Shown here piece by piece: positions 26,867 to 43,954 of a stretch of DNA of 64,000 nucleotides. A program made the translations under genes and the position numbers. Numbering within the stretch: the first letter of the stretch is position 1; each line of letters begins with the position of its first letter. The notes below the pieces were generated by a model. The model saw nothing but the letters and a program-made list of their open reading frames with translations, had not been told where the DNA came from and did not search any database. The stretch lies in the NCBI GenBank assembly GCA_958009085.1, contig OY253669.1, positions 930,001 to 994,000 of the forward strand, read 5' to 3'. This stretch comes from Protoeuglena noctilucae. Its lineage: Eukaryota.

Positions 26867-29800
26867 TCACAAGTGGCGAGTGAGGAAGTCAAAGGACGGC
26901 ATGGGCAGGCCGTGGCTGGAGCGCAGCGGCACGGCATCCGCGATGTTGGGCCGCTGCAGGAGGGGCGCGACATCCGAGGGCATCTCCATGGGGAAGCTGG
27001 CCTCCGTGGCCTCCGCGTAGAGAAACGTCTTCTCGTTGGCCATCTGCTTGATCTGGCGCAGGACGCGGGCGTTGACCGTCTGGGTGTTGTAGCTGTCGTC
27101 GTTGTACCGGTTGCAAATCTGAAGCACCTGGGTCATCGACAGGTCCCGGAGGATGTCCCGGACCTCGTCGAACGTCAGCCGTTCCTGCGAGCGCGGAAGG
27201 GGGTCCCGGGGTCTCTCACGTAGCAACCTCGACGCCCCACGCTCCCTTGCAAGACAAAAGCCCAACGGACAGATCTGCCAAGGTACGGCGGCTGCATAGG
27301 AGACAGAGTATAACAGGGAGCGCGGCGACGCGCCTTGTTGGCCGTGTTGAGGAACTGGGCGCTTTGGGTGATGTAGTTGAGCCCGTCCGTCTCGTACCCG
27401 GACCTCAGCAGCCACGACTCCACGTGGTTGAGGCCCTCGTGGAACCGCTGCCCGCTCGCGAACGAGCACAGCTCCTTGCGGATCAGCATCGCGTTGAAGA
27501 GCTCCCGACCCACGAACGCCACCAGGCCGTGCATGATGGTGACGCGCAGGCGGTCTGGCAACCTGCGGCGACAGTCGAGACGAGACGATGGGCGCTGTAC
27601 CCGCATCCACCGCCCACGAGCGGGGCAAGAGACGTTTGTGTGGCGCTATCCCACAGGGCAGCTGCGTCCACGCCCGTTGCAAGCGTCCACATATAATCAA
27701 CAAAGCCCCTCTCGCAAAACTCACCTGCCCTCCTGCATGCCTGCCTGGGCACGCTCGAGGACCTCCGTGATCTGCACGTAGGGCAGATTGCCCTTCCCCT
27801 CCACGTTGACGTGGGAGGTGGCAATCCGATGCGTGATGGTGTGCAGCTCCGCCTTCCCAAGCTCCTGCGGGACCGGAGAGCAACGCGGGGACACCAGTCA
27901 GGCCCAAAGCAACGTCCGCGACGCGTGGGCAATTGAGAAGCGGCTTGGACAGCGCAGCATGCCAAGCTCTGGCGTGCATAGGACGTCGGCCATGCGCACG
28001 CTTAGCCCTCGCCTTGATCTGGTTCCACGCCCCGAAAATGAAGTTGAAGAGGTTCTGCTTGAAGTGCAGCGTGTTGAGCTTGGCGAGCGCCTGCACGATG
28101 GGGCCGTTCTGGGCGCCGGTGCCGTCCACCGGCGCCGGGAGGGCGCGGATGGCGCTCTTGGCCGGCGTCGTCGTGACTTGGCTCCAGGCCTTGCGGATGC
28201 GGCTGAAGCTCGCGGCGATGCCGCCGCCGAACATCCCACGGTTGGGGCTCGTCGGCACCTCCGGGGCGTGGTCCGTTTCTGACACCGTGTGGGCGTTGAG
28301 CAGGCTCAGCATGGCTGCGGGCGGGTGAGCCGAGGACGTCAGTGGGGCGCTGGTGGAACTACGGAGAGAGTAACAAATTAATTAACTGCGGAGGGCGAGC
28401 GCGGCGGCGAGACGGGGCGCCAAGAGCGGGGAGGTTGGGCAAGACGGGACGGCAAGAGCGGGGAGCTTGGGCGATTGTATGGTGGGGTGACGGGCGACGC
28501 ACGCGGCAGTGTCATGCATCGCAAGAGGCCGTCACCTGTGGCCCAAGTCGCCCAGTAGCTGACGTGCTTGACCTGCAGGAACAGGTCTCCCTGCGGGACG
28601 CGCGCCATCTCGTCCTGCAGGGCGACCTGCACGGCCTCGAGGATCCGAGGGAAGAAGGGCGCGGAGTCGATGTCGAAAACACGCAGGTGGAGGGCCGTGC
28701 GCAGGACCACCAGGGTCGACAGCGGCGCGCCAGACTTCGCCACCAACGACCGGTCTCGGACCACGAAGGCCACCACGTGCGATAACAGCTCGTCGTCCGA
28801 CTGCGACCACCCCTGGGGCCGCGCCCCCGCCGCCGCCCCGCTGCCCAGCCGCGCCAGCGCCCCGTCGACCTCCATGGACGCCGCCACGGACCCCATTCCC
28901 GACTGGGACGCCAGGACCTGGACCCTCTGGTGCAGGTCGGCGTTCTCCTGGGCCACGCGCTGCGCCTCGTCCCGCGCCAGGCGCAGCTGCTCCCGCGCGT
29001 CGTCCCGCTCCTTCTGATACCAGACTGCGCGAACGGAGTCGCGGGGGCCGTGGACGGCGAACCGAGAGGCCCGCGTGCAAAAGCGAACAGACATTCCGCA
29101 GGTGCCGCTCACTCATGCGCTCCTTGTGCTCCGCGTCCTTGCGCCGCAGCGCGTCCAGGTCCGCCTCTGCCTGCTCCAGCTGCGCCCGGACAGCGTCCAC
29201 GTCCGCCCGTGCCCTCGCCACCTCGGCCTCCAGGGCCTGGCGCCCCTGGCTCGACGCCTCCAGCGCTGCCTCCAGCTCCCCCGCGCGCGCGAGCATCTGG
29301 CCCCGCGCCGCCGCCACCTCGCTCCGGAGCGCGTCGGCCTCCGACCTGCGGGCGGGCCACACAGGCACGGTCACTCATCGGCCAACACCACGCTGTCATC
29401 GCAGGCACTGCGACCCCAAGCCCGTCACCTGTGCGCCCCGGACGCCTGCTCCCTGGCTGCCTGCTCCTCGCGCAGCCGCCGCTTGAGCTCGTCGCGCTGG
29501 GCCACGACGGCCTCGAGCGTGGCCCGGGTCTCGGTGAGCGCCGTCTCCAAATTGGCCTTGTCCTGGAGCAGGCGGGAGGACTCGCGGGCCTCCACGCGCA
29601 GGCGGCGGAGCTCCTTGCGGGCCAGGCACCCCCGGACGGCCGACTGGACCGCCACGATGGCGGCCGTGTGCCGGCGCTGGGCGTTGAGGCGCGTGCGCTC
29701 GGAGAGGTACGCCACCCGGTCGCGGTGCATGCGGAAGGCCGACTGGATGGCCACCGCGGCGCGGCGGGCGCGGGCCAGGGACCGGACGGCCAGGTACATG

Positions 29801-32800
29801 CGGGCGCAGCTCTGGAGGAGCACGGCGGCCCGCTCTTTCCGCAGGCGCGTCGCCAGGCGCTGGGCCGCGGCCCGCCGCGCGTAGCTCTGGAGCAGCACGG
29901 TTGCGCCGCGGAGCTCCAGGAAGCGGCGGCGGCAGTGCAGGCGCGCCAGGTGAGCGCGGACCCGGACCTGAGGGCACACGCGGCAGATTGCATGACATGA
30001 TTATGACATAGGCGGGAGATGCATGCACCAGCGACTCAAAGACTCGCATCGGGTCTAAAGACAGCGCGCGCCTACGCGTTGTCTTCGCCTTCTGCGCGCG
30101 GTGGAGGCCCCCAGGCGTGCGCGCGTGCCGCACGCGCCCCCGCACCTGAATGGCCCGCGCGGCAACGTCCAAGGCCATCGCCCTCGCGCGCTCGAGCTTG
30201 GCGCGCTCCCCGGCGCGCAAGAAGACCTTCGTCCGCCCCATCTGGTAGTCCTCCACGCCGCAGTGCCGCAGCACCGCCTCCACCAGCTCCCGCGTCGGGG
30301 CGCCCCCGTGCCGCACGGAAGGCACCACGTGCCAGAAACGGCCCGCGAACTCCTCGACCGACAGGCGCGAGGGGTACCCCGCGCAGCTGATGCGGACGGC
30401 CTCCAGGACCCCCCCGCACCGCAGCTGCTGCAGGACCTGCGGGGCCTCGAAAGCGCCAGAAACGCCGGCGGCGTTGGGCTTGATGCACCGCACGTAGTGG
30501 GGCTGCATGGCCGACAGCGCCGCCATGAGGTCCGCCAGCTGCTTCTGGAAGCGGCTGCACACGGAGGTGAACTTGGTCGTGGGCCCTGCGGCGCTGCGCC
30601 CGGGCGCCGCCCCCAGCCCCTCCACCTCCTCCGGCGTCAGCAGCGCCTTGACGAAGGCGTCCTCGCACTGCGCCAGCATCTCCGTGTGTTCCCGCACGAC
30701 CTGGTCCGAGTTCTTCTCCAGAAAGTTGTCGGTGCTGTACATCACGTCACCCGCGTAGTGCGCGATCGTGAAGCCCCGGCGGTCCAGGCGCGGCACGGAG
30801 AAGCGCGCCGCCGCGCGGCCGTCACCCTTCGCGGCCGGGGCGCCGGCCAGCCTGTCCCGAACGTCCTCCGGGGTGGCCTGGGTCCCCAGGCGGCAGGCCT
30901 CGTCCAGGAGCGGGATCAGCCCTCCCTTGCCCTCGATCAGGTCCAGGACGTCCTGGTTGTCCACGAAATCGATGTAGGACCACTGGATGCCGTCGCGCGC
31001 GTACTCCGCCTGCTCCGTCTTGAACACGTGGGTGTTGAAGTGCTGCTGCAGCTTCTCGTTGGCGAGGTTGATGCAGAACTGCTCCAGGTCGTTGCGGGCG
31101 AAGTGCTCGAATCCGTAAATGTCGAGGACCCCAATCACCGCGTCAGCTGTCGGGTCCTGGCCGATGGACTCATTGATGCGCGACACGAGCCACGTGAAGA
31201 GCCGGGAGTAGAGCGTCTGCACGTGGAGGGAGGGGCACAGGGTGTGCGGGCTGGGGCGACAGGGTCGCAGGCGAGCCGTGCTGGCTGCAGCGGGGTCGGC
31301 ATCGCAAGCACACCGATGGTTGCAGTGAGGGCCGGCAGTGCCAGGCGGGCCGCTGACCTTGGCCAGGGCATCCCTGCTGGCCGCCGCGTCGGTGGGCTTG
31401 ATGGGGCTGACGATCTTCTGCCCTGCCGCGAACCGCGTCTTGGTGGTCAGCGCGTGCACCAGGCCCGCCACCGTCGACCCCAGGAGCTGGGCGACGATTT
31501 CGACGCTCTTGTTGGACGCCGCTGCAGAGAGAGACAGAAACGAGACCAGGGTTACACTGTGCTGTGCACATACCGTCCTCCCAAGGCCCTCCCTTGCCCC
31601 GCCAGCACAGCACCGCTACCCCTGCCGCCCCACCGCAGCCGCGGCAGTCACCCGTGGGCGCGCTCGAGTCCGGCGCGGGCCCCTCCTCGAACTCGATGTC
31701 CCCCAGGTGCAGCACGGCCGCCACCACGCGCATGGCCGCGTCCTGGTCGGACTCGGGTATGCCCACGGCCGTCATGTGCTCGCGGGTGCAGGCGTACTCC
31801 TCGGCGTTGGAGACGCCGCGGAGCTCGTGGACGGAGGAGCGCGCGAGGGTGCGGAACTCCCGGGAAGGCTTGAGGTGCAGCCGCGACCGCTCCTCCGCTG
31901 ACGCGCCCTCGCAGAGCTGGTAGAAGATGTGGTAGGACCGCTCCGGGTCGTTGATGCCCGTGACGCGGGAGCGCTCCAGGAGATACGTGCGGATGGCCGC
32001 GCCGACGATGTGACCGTCCCTGGGGGCACGTCAAAACACGCACCGCTCGGCACACGCACTCACACCACTCACCCTCAACCGGAGCGGTTGTGTCTTAGTC
32101 GCGCGCTAAGCCCGCGACACTCACTTGAACTGCACCTCCATGAACTTCCCGAACCGAGAGGAGTTGTCGTTGCGCACCGTGCGCGCGTTGCCAAAACTCT
32201 CCAAGAGCGGGCTGCTCTCGAGGACACGCTCCTCGACGCCGGACACCACGGGCCGGACATCGCTGCCCATGCTCGTGAGCCGGCGCGAGACGGACAGGCT
32301 GTTGTTGAGGCTCGGGGGCTGGCTGGGTGCCGAGGACCGCTGGGCGAGGTAGGCCAGGTAGTGCATGATGATCTTGCTGGTCTCCGTCTTGCCCGCGCCC
32401 GACTCCCCGGAGATGAGGATCGACTGCGATAAGCCCGTCGTCCGCATCTGGCGGTACGCCTCGTCCGCAATCGCGTACGCGTGCGGGGACCGGTCGTCCA
32501 CGTCCTCAAGACCTGGGAGACGCCACGGGCAGGGTCGGTTCCGGCAAAGGGCGCGTGCGGTAACGAGGCCGACGTGCAGCGCGGGGCTCACAGGCGTACT
32601 GCTCCATCATCATGTCTCCGTAAAGGTGGGGCAAGTCGCGGAAGGGATTGAGCGCGATGAGGATGCTGCCCGTGTACGTGTAGATCTCGTCCACCTGCGC
32701 AGAGGGCGGCGCGTGGGGATGTCCAGGGCGCAGGAGGCGCAAAGGAGCGGCTGCGAGGGCGCTGCAGCGAGGCAACACCGATGCGCAAGGGCGGGCGGGT

Positions 32801-33455
32801 GCGGTCGCAAATGCTGCGGCAAGGGAGGGTTCCCAAGGCACAGTCCGGATGCCGCTGCCTCGCCTGGTACCGCAGGTCGAGGTTGTTGAGGACCGCGGGC
32901 TCGCTGAGGAAGGAGAGCTTGGTCATGTCCTGCGGCGAGCGTATCAAGAGCGCGTCCTCGACGCATCTCCGCCCGGTGAGGCGGAGGGCACATCGCAGCC
33001 TATGCATCATTCGCTGGAGCAAGCGCAGCGAGGAGCGCGCGAGGGCGCGGCCGCGCGGGATCCTTGTTGCCGACGAGACGCTACGTGCGCAAGCGCACAA
33101 GCGCTCCCTCCCGGGCCGCGCGGGCCGCAGGCGGCTCCCGATGGAATGCCCTGTCGACGGGTGTGGCGGCCGCGCCAAGAGAAGCTCCCGCGCGCCCGCC
33201 CAGGCGCAGCACTTCAGCGCTGCCCAGCTGGCGAGCGCGCTGTTCGTAATCTGCGCGGGAAGCGCTCACCTCGACGTGGGCGCGCTCATTGGGCTCCCGT
33301 AAGTGGACGCTCCCGGGCGCCACGTCGATCTCCCCACCCCCCACGACGGCAACCCGCAGCGGGTCGAGGGACACGACTGTCGCCTTCTGCCACGCGTCCG
33401 CCGAGGGGGCCCAGACCTTGGCCCCCACATGCAGACGCTGGGCATCAGGAGACAT
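26867..33455 (-). CDS. Class XI-type myosin (SH3-like N-terminus, motor, about 5 IQ motifs, coiled coil, DIL domain), multi-exon
   Basis: [18 protein letters not shown]-loop [40 protein letters not shown] repeats at 29600-29970, DIL-like [15 protein letters not shown]...[16 protein letters not shown]. Confidence 0.95.
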
Positions 33456-33828
33456 GGCAGTTACTCTAGGACGAGCCGGGTCACGGCTTCAGTCGCATCG
33501 GGGCGGGGACCCAGTTATTGTGGGCAGAACCGCGGTCGACACGCCGCGCGATGGCCCGTGCAGACTTAGTTGTCGCTTTCAAAAAGCGCTGTTGTCCTCA
33601 ACTGATCTGTCGAGCGTGCGAGTCGCCGATTCGGCAGGGCCCGGGGGGACCCTGCCAGCGGCCACGCGTTTTCGGGGAATGGTGAACGCTTGCGGGGTGG
33701 CCACGCCTCGCACGTATCGTCGCGGCCACGTGCTATTCACGGCCGCTGCCGGAGGCCCTATTCTGCTTTCGCTGGCCTCGTTTCCGTGCGGAAGATGGGT
33801 GCCCAAGCGTGCCAGCGCACCAGCAACG

Positions 33829-35049
33829 ATGGTCGCCACGCGCGCTCGCAACTATGACGAGGTCGATACGAGCAAGCCTCCGGACGTGATGAGCGGAGAT
33901 AACGTGCTCTATACTCCCCGCGGGAGCACGCCAAAGGCCCGCCCCCGTCGGCGCCCGGCCAACCGGGGCGCCGCCTCAAAGGATGCGCCCAACCTCGCGC
34001 GGACAGCACCTCCAAATCTTGGCCGGGGTCCCAGGAGGAAGGAGGCTGTCCATGACGCGCCAAGCCTTAGCAGTGGGGACCAGCGCAACGAAGGATCCTG
34101 GGTCGCCGCGCCGGTGCTTCTGGTCGTCGCGGTGTGCGTGGTCCTGGTGATAATTGCACTCTTTATGTGGCGCCCTGGTCTGTCGTGGCACGGGGCCGGC
34201 AGTTGCGCCGACCGCTTCGACACCGCGGCGCTCGACGGGACCGTGCTTGGCCGGCAGGCGTCCCTCCTCGGCCTGGACCTCGCCCGCCAGCAGGGACGCA
34301 AAAGTACGGCGCAAGATGCTTTCACGCTGCTCGTGTCGGGCCGGGCGGACGCCGTGGCCCAAGCGGAGGAGGCTTTGAAGGTGTGCTGCGTGGGGACCAT
34401 GCTGGATGGTGTCTCCGGGAGCCAAGCCCTTGTTATGCATGGCAGTCCCTTCTTTTGCGCAGGGCGGGCTGCGGCACTGCAGCGCGGAGTGCGTTCTGAC
34501 GCTGGAGGGCACGGCTTTCGCGGAGGTGGGTGTGGGGAGTGAGTGGGGAGGCCTGCATCCGTATGCACATGCATCCGCATGCCGTTGCTGGACGACGGTG
34601 GGTGACTTGTGCGCGCAGGGTGACCCCGACGAGTTGGCAGCGCGGGGGCAGCTGGCCTTGGTGCAGCTGCTGCAGCGCTGCCCCACGGCGGCGGTCTTCG
34701 TGCGTGACGTAGACAGGGCGCACCGCGCCGTCCTGACGGGCCCGCTGCTGACGCTGACGAGCGAGAGCGGGTCTTTCATGCACATGGGGAAGACGGTCCC
34801 TGCGACAGGGAGCCTCGTCGTGCTGACCATGGGTGGAGAGGACGCGCCCCAGACGGAGAGGCAAGAGCTGCGGCTCCGGAAGAGAGCACAGGTGGATGTG
34901 GACACCTCGCAGCGCACTGCTCATCTCTTCCAAGCTCCGACCTGTGCAGGGAGGCCAAGGCGCGGCTGATGAAGGCTGCGCAAGGAGCCCCCGAGGGGAA
35001 GCAGCGCGCGCTGACGAGGAGGGTGGATTACTTCATCTACGCTGCATAG
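33829..35049 (+). CDS. Single-pass membrane protein with degenerate torsin/LAP1-like AAA+ domain
   Basis: Basic disordered N-terminus, TM WVAAPVLLVVAVCVVLVIIALFMW, then FTLLVSG...LQRCPTAAVFVRDVDR...GSLVVLTMG...RALTRRVDYFIYAA*; last exon assumes a GC donor at 34861. Confidence 0.6.
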
Positions 35050-35361
35050 CACAGGCAGTCATTTCTCTCGATTGATACGGCCGGGATCCAGTTGTCTTAG
35101 CCGCGCAAGTCTGGCGTGTTTTCTCGCAGCCGTGTCGTGCTCATTCGCAGGCCCCATGCGTCCTGCGTGCAATTGGTCAGTAGGGGTTGTTGGTCATTGC
35201 GGACCGAACAACCCAAACCTTAGAAAGGCTTTCTGGGCTCTGAAGAGCTGCATGAAAGTCCCCCTGCGTTTTCAATGGCACTGCGCTCGCCGATGGCCAT
35301 GCGCTGACCTGAGCATGGCTCTGGTCTTCGTGAGAAAGGCTCTCTGACCTTCAGGGGCGAG

Positions 35362-42600: not shown

Positions 42601-43954
42601 CCCCATGCTAGGGACCCACAGCGCACGTGCGATGTACAAGTCATGCCCTAGTCCGTGCGTGAAGGTCATGCGCGAGGTACGGGCCGCGGCCCGGGCACGC
42701 ACTTGTTCTTCACGAGGGCGTGCGCGGCCCACGACTTGTCGAGGTGCTTGGCCAAGGGCCCCTCGCGTGCGAGGGCCTCTGCCTCCCCGAAGAGGTCCGC
42801 GCACTGCTTGGCCAGGCGGGCCAGGATGCCACCCTTCTTGCCACCCATCGCCGCACTCTCGTAGCAACACTGCGGGGAGCGGCTTCGAGGGCCCGTGGCC
42901 GCCGCGCTTGGTCTAAGCAGACCTGCACCCCGTCTGCACCCCCGCTCACACAGAACCCGCGGCACCCGGCCAGACCTGAGCTGCGCCCTCGGCCCCACCT
43001 GCTGCGCCTGTGCCAGGCAGAGCTTCTCCAGCATGGTACAGCAGCTGGGTCCGATGTCCTCCGGCCGCGAGGACGCATCGAGCTTCACGGCCACCTGGTC
43101 CCTCAGATGCGCAAAGCACCCCGCAGCGTCCTGGAGGTTCCGTGCTGCGCCGTTGACGCCGTCCGGGGACGCCCGGTCAGCCTCGGACGCCAGCTTGGTC
43201 AAGGCCGCTCCCATGTTGAACAGAACCGCGGACTTCTCCAGGTGCACCGAACAGCTGACCTGCCTCTGGGAGGGCTTGAACGCGTCGTCCCACGAAAAGC
43301 GCACCTCCACGCCTGCGGGGACGCCAGCAGCGCGCATATCCGAGAGCCGCGCGTGCGAGGTCCGTCGTGACATGCGAGCGAAACAGAAATGGCCATCGCA
43401 CCTGTCGCGGAGATGGGGAAGCGAATCTCGAGACCCTGCAGCACCTTGAACCACCGCCTGCGTGCCAGGGATGGATAGATGCGGCCATGGTTCGCCCAAA
43501 CACAAGAAATTCATGCATGGCGATCCAGCGGGGGCCATCAAGCGTCGCGAGGGGCATGCGCGCCATCGCACTAAGCGGCGCTGACCTGCAAGCGTTGACG
43601 CGCGCCTCCGTGGAGAGCGACGAGGAAGCGGCCTCCTCTCGGAGCTTCGCCACGACATCTAGGTCATCGTTGCAGTTTGGGACACCTGCGAGAGGGGACA
43701 GGTTCGCGTTCCCTCGGCTGCCGAAGCAACGGGCTCCGGCGCCGAGGCTCCGCGCGCACCGGGGGCTCGGTGGCCCAGATAGCCGTGATCCACGGTAAGA
43801 ATAGAGGACACACGAGCCGATACCATGCCAAGAGCCTCTCACTATGCACGCCATAGTTGTCTTTGATCCACTTCTCCAGCGGGGCACGCAGGTCCACCGC
43901 GTGGCCGCCCTTGAAGGGCACGGGGAGAAGCACGGTCTTGAAGTGGGCTGGCAT
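39605..43954 (-). CDS. ALIX: ALIX/BRO1 ESCRT accessory protein (Bro1 domain, V domain, Pro/Gln/Tyr-rich tail), multi-exon; 3' end approximate
   Basis: FSWDDAFKP...LEKSAVLFNMGA...AAGCFAHLRD...LEKLCLAQAQ; NLEAGLRFYSQLQ...RDFLMSRKAERDDLIEDL. Confidence 0.92.
39775..39895 (-). repeat. Coding tandem repeat, 21-nt unit encoding GQYGQQQ (about 5 copies) in the ALIX tail
   Basis: Repeated (g/c)ccgtactgcccctgctgctg-like units on the + strand; translation QGHYGQQQGQYNQQQGQYGQQQGQYGQQQGQYGQQQGQYGQ. Confidence 0.9.

Follow-up and report, generated by a model that had tools for sequence, protein, structure and literature searches.

A predicted LAP1/LULL1-like membrane protein of green algae with a catalytically dead AAA+ subdomain

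Introduction

Torsins and their cofactors are, to our knowledge, the sole AAA+ system known in the lumen of the endoplasmic reticulum (ER) and the nuclear envelope, and this system is linked to nuclear-pore biogenesis, lipid metabolism, and human dystonia. The cofactor LAP1 (TOR1AIP1) has a basic, disordered N-terminus in the nucleoplasm, which a single membrane helix connects to an AAA+-like domain in the lumen; LULL1 (TOR1AIP2) is its ER/outer-membrane paralogue. Inner-nuclear-membrane proteins of the HeH/LEM type (yeast Heh1/Heh2, Lem2) are built differently, with an N-terminal helix-extended-helix, SAP-like DNA-binding module followed by a membrane anchor; they span the membrane with two helices, carry a C-terminal winged-helix domain on the nucleoplasmic side, and lack an AAA+-like domain in the lumen. 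Here we describe a gene at positions 33829–35049 on the forward strand of a 64,000-nucleotide stretch of the Protoeuglena noctilucae genome (assembly GCA_958009085.1, contig OY253669.1, positions 930,001–994,000), referred to as a whole as the window. From its letters alone, this gene had originally been predicted to encode a torsin activator of LAP1/LULL1-like architecture. Our analysis makes it very probable that the structural part of this description is right, namely that the product is a single-helix membrane protein with a dead AAA+ large subdomain resembling those of LAP1 and LULL1.

Torsins themselves have no arginine fingers (PMC4999309); these have been described in their cofactors: Arg563 in LAP1 (PMC4358337) and Arg449 in LULL1 (PMC4999309). 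The torsins and these cofactors occur jointly in all metazoans and are treated as an animal invention (PMC4358337; bioRxiv 10.1101/2025.11.07.687155; PMC7175109). Homologues of torsins have been reported in kinetoplastids (PMC10903960), so that torsins are not strictly animal.

Results

Fold and structural relatives

An AlphaFold2 model based on a 17-row alignment of the protein family reached a pLDDT of 90.0 and a pTM of 0.83; folding of the single sequence was uninformative (pLDDT 47). In the model, a membrane helix is followed by a five-stranded α/β domain with the strands FTLLVSG, VLTLE, AVFVR, LVVLTMG, and YFIYA and a β-hairpin preceding the fourth strand. The elements that had been picked out from the sequence all find their place in this fold. 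FTLLVSG (34321–34341), proposed to occupy the position of the Walker A strand without a P-loop, forms strand β1 and runs into the next helix with no P-loop between them. The proposed Walker-B-like region lacking the catalytic Glu (AAVFVRDVD, 34688–34714) contains AVFVR, the Walker B strand of the model, GSLVVLTM (34808–34831) coincides with the sensor-1 strand, and the C-terminal RRVDYFI contributes to the last strand. The expectation that the domain following the membrane helix is an AAA+ large domain is thus borne out by the model and by the structure searches.

A Foldseek search of the Protein Data Bank (PDB) with the model gave 320 matches at E ≤ 0.001, led by Skd3, ClpC1, the second nucleotide-binding domain (NBD2) of ClpB, and Hsp104. 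When 990 Foldseek candidates were re-aligned, human LAP1 came first (4tvs_B, Z 18.1, rmsd 2.4, 180 residues aligned of 222) and human LULL1 second (5j1s_B, Z 17.3, rmsd 2.9, 184 of 235), with ClpA, ClpB, and Skd3 next at Z 15–17. A scan that made no use of Foldseek and covered 48,161 representative chains placed LULL1 first (5j1s_B, Z 17.3), ahead of CLPB (16.2), ClpB NBD2 (16.1), ClpA (15.4), and PTEX HSP101 (14.9); scores then dropped clearly, to 12.6 for RuvB and at most 12.6 for other AAA+ proteins. Since the lead of LAP1 and LULL1 over the second-ring (D2) domains of Clp proteins is about one Z unit, which is a near tie, only a group-level placement is safe: as far as the model goes, the domain lies within the Clp-D2/LAP1-LULL1 structural group, and its match to LAP1 and LULL1 is at least as good as that to any working ATPase.

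Loss of catalytic motifs and an invariant arginine pair

The motifs of a functional ATPase have disappeared throughout the family. The pattern GxxxxGK[ST] is absent from 16 of 16 rows, as is the Asp-Glu at the Walker B position from all 17 rows in which it was examined, the window protein reading Arg-Asp there. The aromatic pore loop of Skd3 aligns opposite Asp-Glu-Leu-Ala, and a lid domain is missing because the protein does not extend beyond the last strand of the large subdomain. Having lost P-loop, Walker B glutamate, pore loop, and lid, the window protein can neither bind nor hydrolyse ATP, nor can it thread substrates.

Two adjacent arginines close to the C-terminus have been retained. 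Arg309 and Arg310 (35017–35022) do not vary in any of the 15 rows extending to the C-terminus, and the protein ends 8 residues past Arg310. In the numbering of the database protein P0004, these residues are Arg214 and Arg215, and C131 is Cys226 of the window protein. The superpositions with LAP1 and LULL1 both end at model residue 223, opposite LAP1 residue 572 and LULL1 residue 458; if the last ten residues are assumed to be gapless, model Arg214 (Arg309 of the protein) falls on LAP1 Arg563 and on LULL1 Arg449. The same reckoning with ranges on ClpB chains puts Arg215 on what we take to be the finger of the second ClpB ring. Arg214 closes the model helix 208–214 directly before the last strand, in agreement with the published placement of LULL1 Arg449 at the base of helix α5 (PMC4999309). 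Apart from the arginine pair, the most conserved stretch of the family is the β-hairpin, with the pattern SE-G-F...G. The best structural matches, the invariant pair, the missing lid, and the SAP domains of some orthologues (see below) together uphold the LAP1/LULL1-like architecture that had been proposed.

Membrane helix, cysteines, and predicted topology

Sequence and model also agree with the predicted layout of a basic, disordered N-terminus containing Ser-Pro and Thr-Pro sites, a single transmembrane helix, and an α/β domain. The first 95 residues carry a net charge of +7 and no cysteine, with 11 prolines within the first 90 and two Ser/Thr-Pro sites; the C-terminal domain following the helix comprises about 200 residues. 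The window protein has no N-terminal segment resembling a signal peptide and only one strong helix. A strong, single hydrophobic helix likewise separates the N-terminal part from the conserved domain in 12 of the 13 longer family members.

All four cysteines of the window protein lie after the membrane helix. The family conserves the positions C31, C99, and C131 (P0004 numbering) together with a C-x(2-4)-C arrangement, and the first cysteine and the first cysteine of the C-x-C pair are both present in 13 of the 14 rows covering both sites, the exception being P0023, which has neither. Because these sites are kept or lost together, we infer two disulfides, Cys126–Cys190 and Cys194–Cys226, and an oxidising, luminal location of the domain. 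The charges flanking the helix favour neither orientation. The protein would be of type II, with a nucleoplasmic tail, the membrane helix, and a perinuclear domain, and the SAP domains of orthologues point to the inner nuclear membrane. As these domains occupy residues 4–37, the orthologues cannot carry an organelle presequence there, and a nuclear location is indicated; the window protein itself has five acidic residues among its first 25, unlike presequences.

A family in green algae, with SAP domains in several members

A full HMMER scan of 1.84 billion representative proteins returned 20 proteins at E ≤ 0.001. Setting aside the query, two unspliced open reading frame (ORF) calls of the same locus (P0005 and P0006), P0012, and P0008 left 15 relatives, to which another search added one. 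P0012 proved to be a bacterial repeat adhesin; P0008, a protein of 7077 residues that matches in 19 short stretches, was dropped as presumably spurious. Word-indexed protein searches yielded three matches with the family profile and one with the luminal domain of Chlorokybus and are uninformative on land plants.

At least six named green algae have a member. These are the Trebouxiophyceae Botryococcus braunii, Coccomyxa subellipsoidea C-169, and [Myrmecia] bisecta, in addition to Tetraselmis striata, Cymbomonas tetramitiformis, and the streptophyte Chlorokybus atmophyticus. The remaining members are found on environmental contigs of up to 107 kb. All named relatives are annotated as hypothetical or as "SAP domain-containing"; the AP2/ERF name given to the Cymbomonas protein in its source was not reproduced by Pfam at E ≤ 0.01, and we make no claim from it. 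The family evolves fast, with a median end-branch length of about one change per site, and in the tree the window protein groups with two environmental sequences (support 94/92).

Pfam detects a SAP domain (PF02037) at the extreme N-terminus of P0009, P0014, P0017, P0030, and P0034, with 29–44 bits at a cut-off of 23.9; in P0010 it stays below the cut-off at 20.6 bits. By eye, members without SAP share a start of the form Met-x-x-(Thr/Ser)-Arg-x-x-Arg, which in the window protein reads MVATRAR (33829–33850) and in relatives MVTTRSSR (P0021), MPVSTRSGR (P0013), or MPPRTRKG (P0022), with an internal MAPRTRTTR in P0023; P0025 has it as well. To judge from these letters, it may be a short motif related to chromatin or import. 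In the P0016 subfamily, an environmental cluster of 20 members, the hydrophobic helix lies at residues 7–25, leaving nearly no N-terminal tail. This could be a tail-less variant, or the start could have been called too far downstream, since one member of the cluster has 517 residues.

Sequence relationships

In profile searches of the PDB, the family matched the nucleotide-binding domain of human CLPB/Skd3 with E 1.1e-8 and 38 bits and the second-ring domains of ClpC, ClpB, and Hsp104 with E of about 0.006–0.01. The match to Skd3-type proteins is colinear, running from the helix before the Walker B strand through the β-hairpin to sensor 1, and a search with the single sequence gave E 0.013. 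This colinear profile match indicates descent from a Clp-type ATPase; by sequence, the domain is a decayed module of the Clp-D2/Skd3 type. Pfam recognises no family in the window protein, including AAA_2 (PF07724) and Torsin (PF06309), and in the relatives P0013 and P0017 AAA_2 reaches only 14 bits at a cut-off of 27.

A weak match to a torsin profile, weighed in the Discussion, runs colinearly from β1 to sensor 1. A C-terminal sub-profile of the family gave no meaningful alignment with 10 torsins, and a pairing by eye of the family's RR-[IVFL]-[DE] with the torsin consensus NLID accordingly received no statistical support from it. Language-model features offer leads only: torsin clusters are among the nearest named neighbours at 0.83–0.85, and all neighbours lie below 0.9 except one Chlorophyta cluster at 0.91. 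The nearest named neighbours by these features are two Streptophyta clusters of 264 and 307 residues (0.86–0.87), in which 12–18% of members carry AAA_2 and which may be land-plant relatives of the family.

Gene model and transcripts

The gene comprises four exons encoding 318 residues, laid out as follows.

33729–33828, forward strand: 5′ untranslated region (UTR); RNA contigs start at 33729, 33730, and 33733
33829–34380, forward strand: exon 1, residues 1–184, with the basic disordered N-terminus (residues 1–90), the membrane helix, and the first part of the predicted luminal domain
34099–34170, forward strand: single transmembrane helix, residues ~91–114; best 19-residue Kyte-Doolittle mean 3.34; model helix 2–19
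34381–34462, forward strand: intron 1, 82 nucleotides, GT–AG, from RNA contig joints
34463–34525, forward strand: exon 2, residues 185–205, with the C-x3-C pair and strand β2
34526–34618, forward strand: intron 2, 93 nucleotides, GT–AG, from RNA contig joints
34619–34860, forward strand: exon 3, residues 206–286 (last codon split), with an RCP motif, the degenerate Walker B strand, the SE-G-F...G β-hairpin, and the sensor-1 strand
34861–34949, forward strand: intron 3, 89 nucleotides, non-canonical GC–AG with donor AG|GCAAGA, from RNA contigs of three runs
34950–35049, forward strand: exon 4, residues 286–318 and the stop codon TAG, with helix α5, Arg309–Arg310, and the last strand YFIYA
35050–35200, forward strand: 3′ UTR; RNA contigs continue beyond 35200

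Of the words sampled from 33700–35200, about 72%, the exonic share, are present in four marine metatranscriptome runs of one study, and 100% in four runs labelled with a single organism; one of the latter, DNA run X6, is colinear with the window. Three of these metatranscriptome runs (X1–X3) each yielded one contig that has zero letters differing from the window and skips all three introns exactly. The same spliced product is found in two database proteins, P0004 from a 1125-nucleotide Logan contig and P0025 from a JGI/IMG contig, the latter being the full-length product preceded by 33 residues of read-through 5′ leader. All peptide strings quoted in the original prediction were located in the window in the frames claimed.

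That prediction depended on a GC donor at 34861 and on the frame of the last exon, and the transcripts settle both in its favour. The RNA joint aligns at 34858→34948 with three ambiguous letters, and the placement 34860|34950 gives both GC..AG ends and the frame of P0004 and P0025. A family HMM built without the window protein and run against 1071 six-frame ORFs of the window recognised the frame of exons 2–3 (E 1.3e-28) and the RRVDYFI frame of the last exon (E 1.2e-4), and did not match the alternative last-exon frame; the alternative GT donor near 34892 is unused in the RNA contigs of the three runs. The spliced contigs, P0004, and P0025 thus establish the GC donor and the reading frame ending in RRVDYFIYAA as real. 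Splicing, expression, and family conservation rule out a pseudogene or a chance ORF. The window has 64–74% G+C throughout, and its genes have short introns.

The transcribed leader holds an upstream ORF of 20 codons (33795–33857, forward strand), whose ATG at 33795 has A at −3 and G at +4 and which ends with TGA at 33855–33857. Because this short ORF lies in the leader and extends, in a different frame, across the main ATG at 33829, it could reduce translation of the main ORF.

A survey of torsins in metagenome contigs

Metagenome contigs were scanned with a torsin Walker A/Walker B pattern based on animal torsins, which occurred at no fewer than 120 loci. Among the matches listed, 36 lie in in-frame ORFs and about 17 are true torsins, with a GC content of 0.36–0.58; five that were tested matched Pfam Torsin at E 1e-38 to 1e-48. 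By impression, without a taxonomic check, the approximately 17 looked animal-like. Three full-length torsins from marine transcript-like contigs (L006, L024, L054) end in KDEL, KDEL, and HDEL, respectively. Since animal torsins lack such retrieval signals according to the available text of PMC10903960, these three may derive from non-animal eukaryotes.

Genomic surroundings

Between 26.8 and 45.3 kb of the window, 23 ORFs were compared with Pfam. Twenty gave no match, and the three with a domain belong to the following two features.

29396–33488, reverse strand: myosin gene; Pfam Myosin_head E 4e-101 (ORF 29396–31615) and 3e-30 (ORF 31170–32030)
42666–43658, reverse strand: ORF with a BRO1-like domain; Pfam E 1.9e-35

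The myosin gene lies upstream and is transcribed divergently; its first exon is read as starting at about 33455, some 275 bp from the RNA start of the LAP1-like gene, and the interval looks like a shared, bidirectional promoter region. The BRO1 domain suggests, by sequence, a gene for an ESCRT-associated protein.

Discussion

Comparison of the window protein with the closest described systems brings out a common design next to marked differences. Like LAP1, it appears to place a basic, disordered N-terminus in the nucleoplasm and, beyond a single helix, an AAA+-like domain in the lumen; in this domain, both the nucleotide-binding motifs and the small lid domain are missing, and a conserved arginine precedes the end of the aligned fold by about nine residues. 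Identity in the superposition is only 13%, however, with no detectable sequence similarity; the chain ends 8 residues past the arginine pair, compared with about 20 in LAP1, the cysteine pattern is unlike that of LAP1, algal orthologues have a predicted DNA-binding SAP domain where LAP1 has a lamin- or chromatin-binding region, and the algal family occurs in organisms with no torsin on record. LULL1 shares the fold and the truncation at 11% identity, but its N-terminus is cytoplasmic and not DNA-binding. The second-ring domains of Clp/Hsp100 proteins, especially human CLPB/Skd3, with which even the length of the β-hairpin agrees, are the only clear relatives in sequence and reach Z 15–17; in contrast to them, the window protein is membrane-anchored and has lost working Walker A, Walker B, pore loop, and lid. 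Torsins (PF06309) belong to the same AAA+ clade and probably share the compartment, but the window protein has no GKN P-loop, no lid (Gly-Cys-Lys sensor II), and no signal peptide, and, unlike torsins, the algal family keeps Arg-Arg at the arginine-finger position. The SAP-bearing orthologues finally resemble HeH/LEM-type inner-nuclear-membrane proteins in having an N-terminal SAP-like module and a membrane anchor, but combine these with one helix and an AAA+-like domain instead of two helices and a winged-helix domain.

The best explanation for this combination would be that the protein acts as LAP1 does on torsin. The basic, disordered, phosphorylatable N-terminus, with its SAP domain in several orthologues, would face the nucleoplasm or cytoplasm; one helix would span the nuclear envelope/ER membrane; and the roughly 200 C-terminal residues would lie in the lumen as a dead subdomain of the Clp-D2/Skd3/torsin type that retains the core fold, two likely disulfides, and the invariant Arg-Arg at the arginine-finger position before the last strand. 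Like animal LAP1 and LULL1, the domain would dock side-on to an AAA+ ATPase of the lumen that has no arginine finger or requires one, Arg309/Arg310 would enter the active site of this partner and switch on ATP hydrolysis, and the activity of the partner would thereby be fixed at the inner nuclear membrane and chromatin. By analogy with LAP1, such an activator mechanism is conceivable at somewhat less than even odds, and the partner might, by the same analogy, be a torsin. For the explanation taken as a whole, covering structure, topology, location, and mechanism, we estimate a probability of roughly 0.45.

Several observations weigh against it. Next to the near tie in structural similarity with Clp D2 domains, the equivalence of the arginines rests on alignment ranges, and the counterpart of the finger may be either Arg309 or Arg310. 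No LAP1 or LULL1 chain is among the PDB sequence matches at E ≤ 10, whether the single sequence or the profile is used, and torsins match only weakly (against an alignment of 10 torsins from the metagenome survey, hhalign gives a probability of 27% with E 6.7e-4 and HMMER at most 12.5 bits). The C-terminal disulfide of LULL1 and LAP1, which in LULL1 links C310 to C468 and reaches the extreme C-terminus (PMC4999309), has no counterpart, as the last cysteine of the window protein is Cys226. Pfam finds no SAP domain in the N-terminus of the window protein at E ≤ 10. Torsins, present in animals, are absent from plants and fungi according to the available text of three sources (PMC4358337; bioRxiv 10.1101/2025.11.07.687155; PMC7175109). 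The 64-kb window contains no second AAA_2- or torsin-like ORF, and no GC-rich green-algal torsin is among the matches listed from the scan of metagenome contigs; the latter is weak evidence, since the motif derives from animals and the matches listed say little on algae. Since the tests for sequence homology and for the C-terminal disulfide were both negative, we do not assign the protein to the LAP1/LULL1 family, and sequence similarity gives no backing to a common descent with LAP1.

The missing partner could also mean that there is none. Dead enzymes acting as scaffolds are common, and the AAA+ domain might be a binding module in the lumen, for itself or for perinuclear proteins such as SUN/KASH-type bridges or pore-assembly factors, tying chromatin to the nuclear envelope through the SAP domain or the basic tail; Arg-Arg would then be kept for folding or protein contact, just as the conserved SE-G-F...G hairpin could be structural. 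Such a scaffold would fit the failure to find an ATPase in the window or among the motif matches listed, and the literature placing torsins outside plants (PMC4358337; bioRxiv 10.1101/2025.11.07.687155, in their available text). It would leave unaccounted for that two adjacent arginines at the finger position have stayed strictly invariant along branches of about one change per site, which is what catalysis in trans predicts, and that the domain ends where LAP1 and LULL1 end, having lost everything that an ATPase needs except the arginine element. We therefore hold a scaffold without ATPase partner to be rather unlikely.

The ancestry of the domain allows a further reading, which shares the mechanism with the LAP1-like explanation and differs from it only in descent: the protein could have evolved from an Hsp100/Skd3-like ATPase within the green lineage, independently of LAP1, activate or cap an Hsp100-type ATPase of the ER lumen, and owe its LAP1-like design to convergence. 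The similarity to Skd3, ClpB, and ClpC D2 domains (38 bits, E 1e-8), beside which that to torsins is far weaker and that to LAP1/LULL1 nil, speaks for this, as do the hairpin length shared with Skd3 and the cysteine pattern foreign to LAP1/LULL1. LAP1 and LULL1 have diverged so far, however, that missing sequence similarity says little, and they are the best structural match; moreover, the existence of kinetoplastid homologues of torsins (PMC10903960) makes an ancient torsin-cofactor pair possible. On balance, we consider a convergent origin improbable. The match to Skd3 touches on the question of compartment as well. Skd3 is a protein of the mitochondrial intermembrane space, and as it is the best sequence match, SAP is missing from the window protein, and the helix-flanking charges are indecisive, one might place the protein in the mitochondrial inner membrane with its domain in the intermembrane space, or in the ER/Golgi generally without a nuclear role. 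A folded SAP domain at residues 4–37 of orthologues is incompatible with an N-terminal organelle presequence, and the acidic start of the window protein is unlike one, so that a different compartment seems most improbable.

Returning to the LAP1-like explanation, we tentatively propose, at odds clearly below even, that a working counterpart of LAP1 exists in green algae, in a range from the prasinophytes to Chlorokybus, an early-branching streptophyte: a chromatin-tethered inner-nuclear-membrane protein that provides an arginine finger from a dead AAA+ domain. Literature searches turned up no LAP1-like nuclear-envelope protein, and none combining SAP with a membrane helix, in plants or algae. 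What is new here is the LAP1 design, so far described only in animals, in a different lineage, with a recognisably Clp-type ancestor and a different chromatin-binding module. If the proposal is true, the perinuclear space of the green lineage would hold an unrecognised torsin-like or Hsp100-like ATPase system, either inherited from the last eukaryotic common ancestor or invented twice. When a torsin-type system arose, and how many times, is a question raised anew by a conserved green-algal family of the same unusual design, which joins an N-terminus that binds chromatin and a membrane anchor to an AAA+ domain that is free of nucleotide and ends past the arginine finger. The family would add a candidate inner-nuclear-membrane protein to the green lineage and a bait for a luminal ATPase where none is known.

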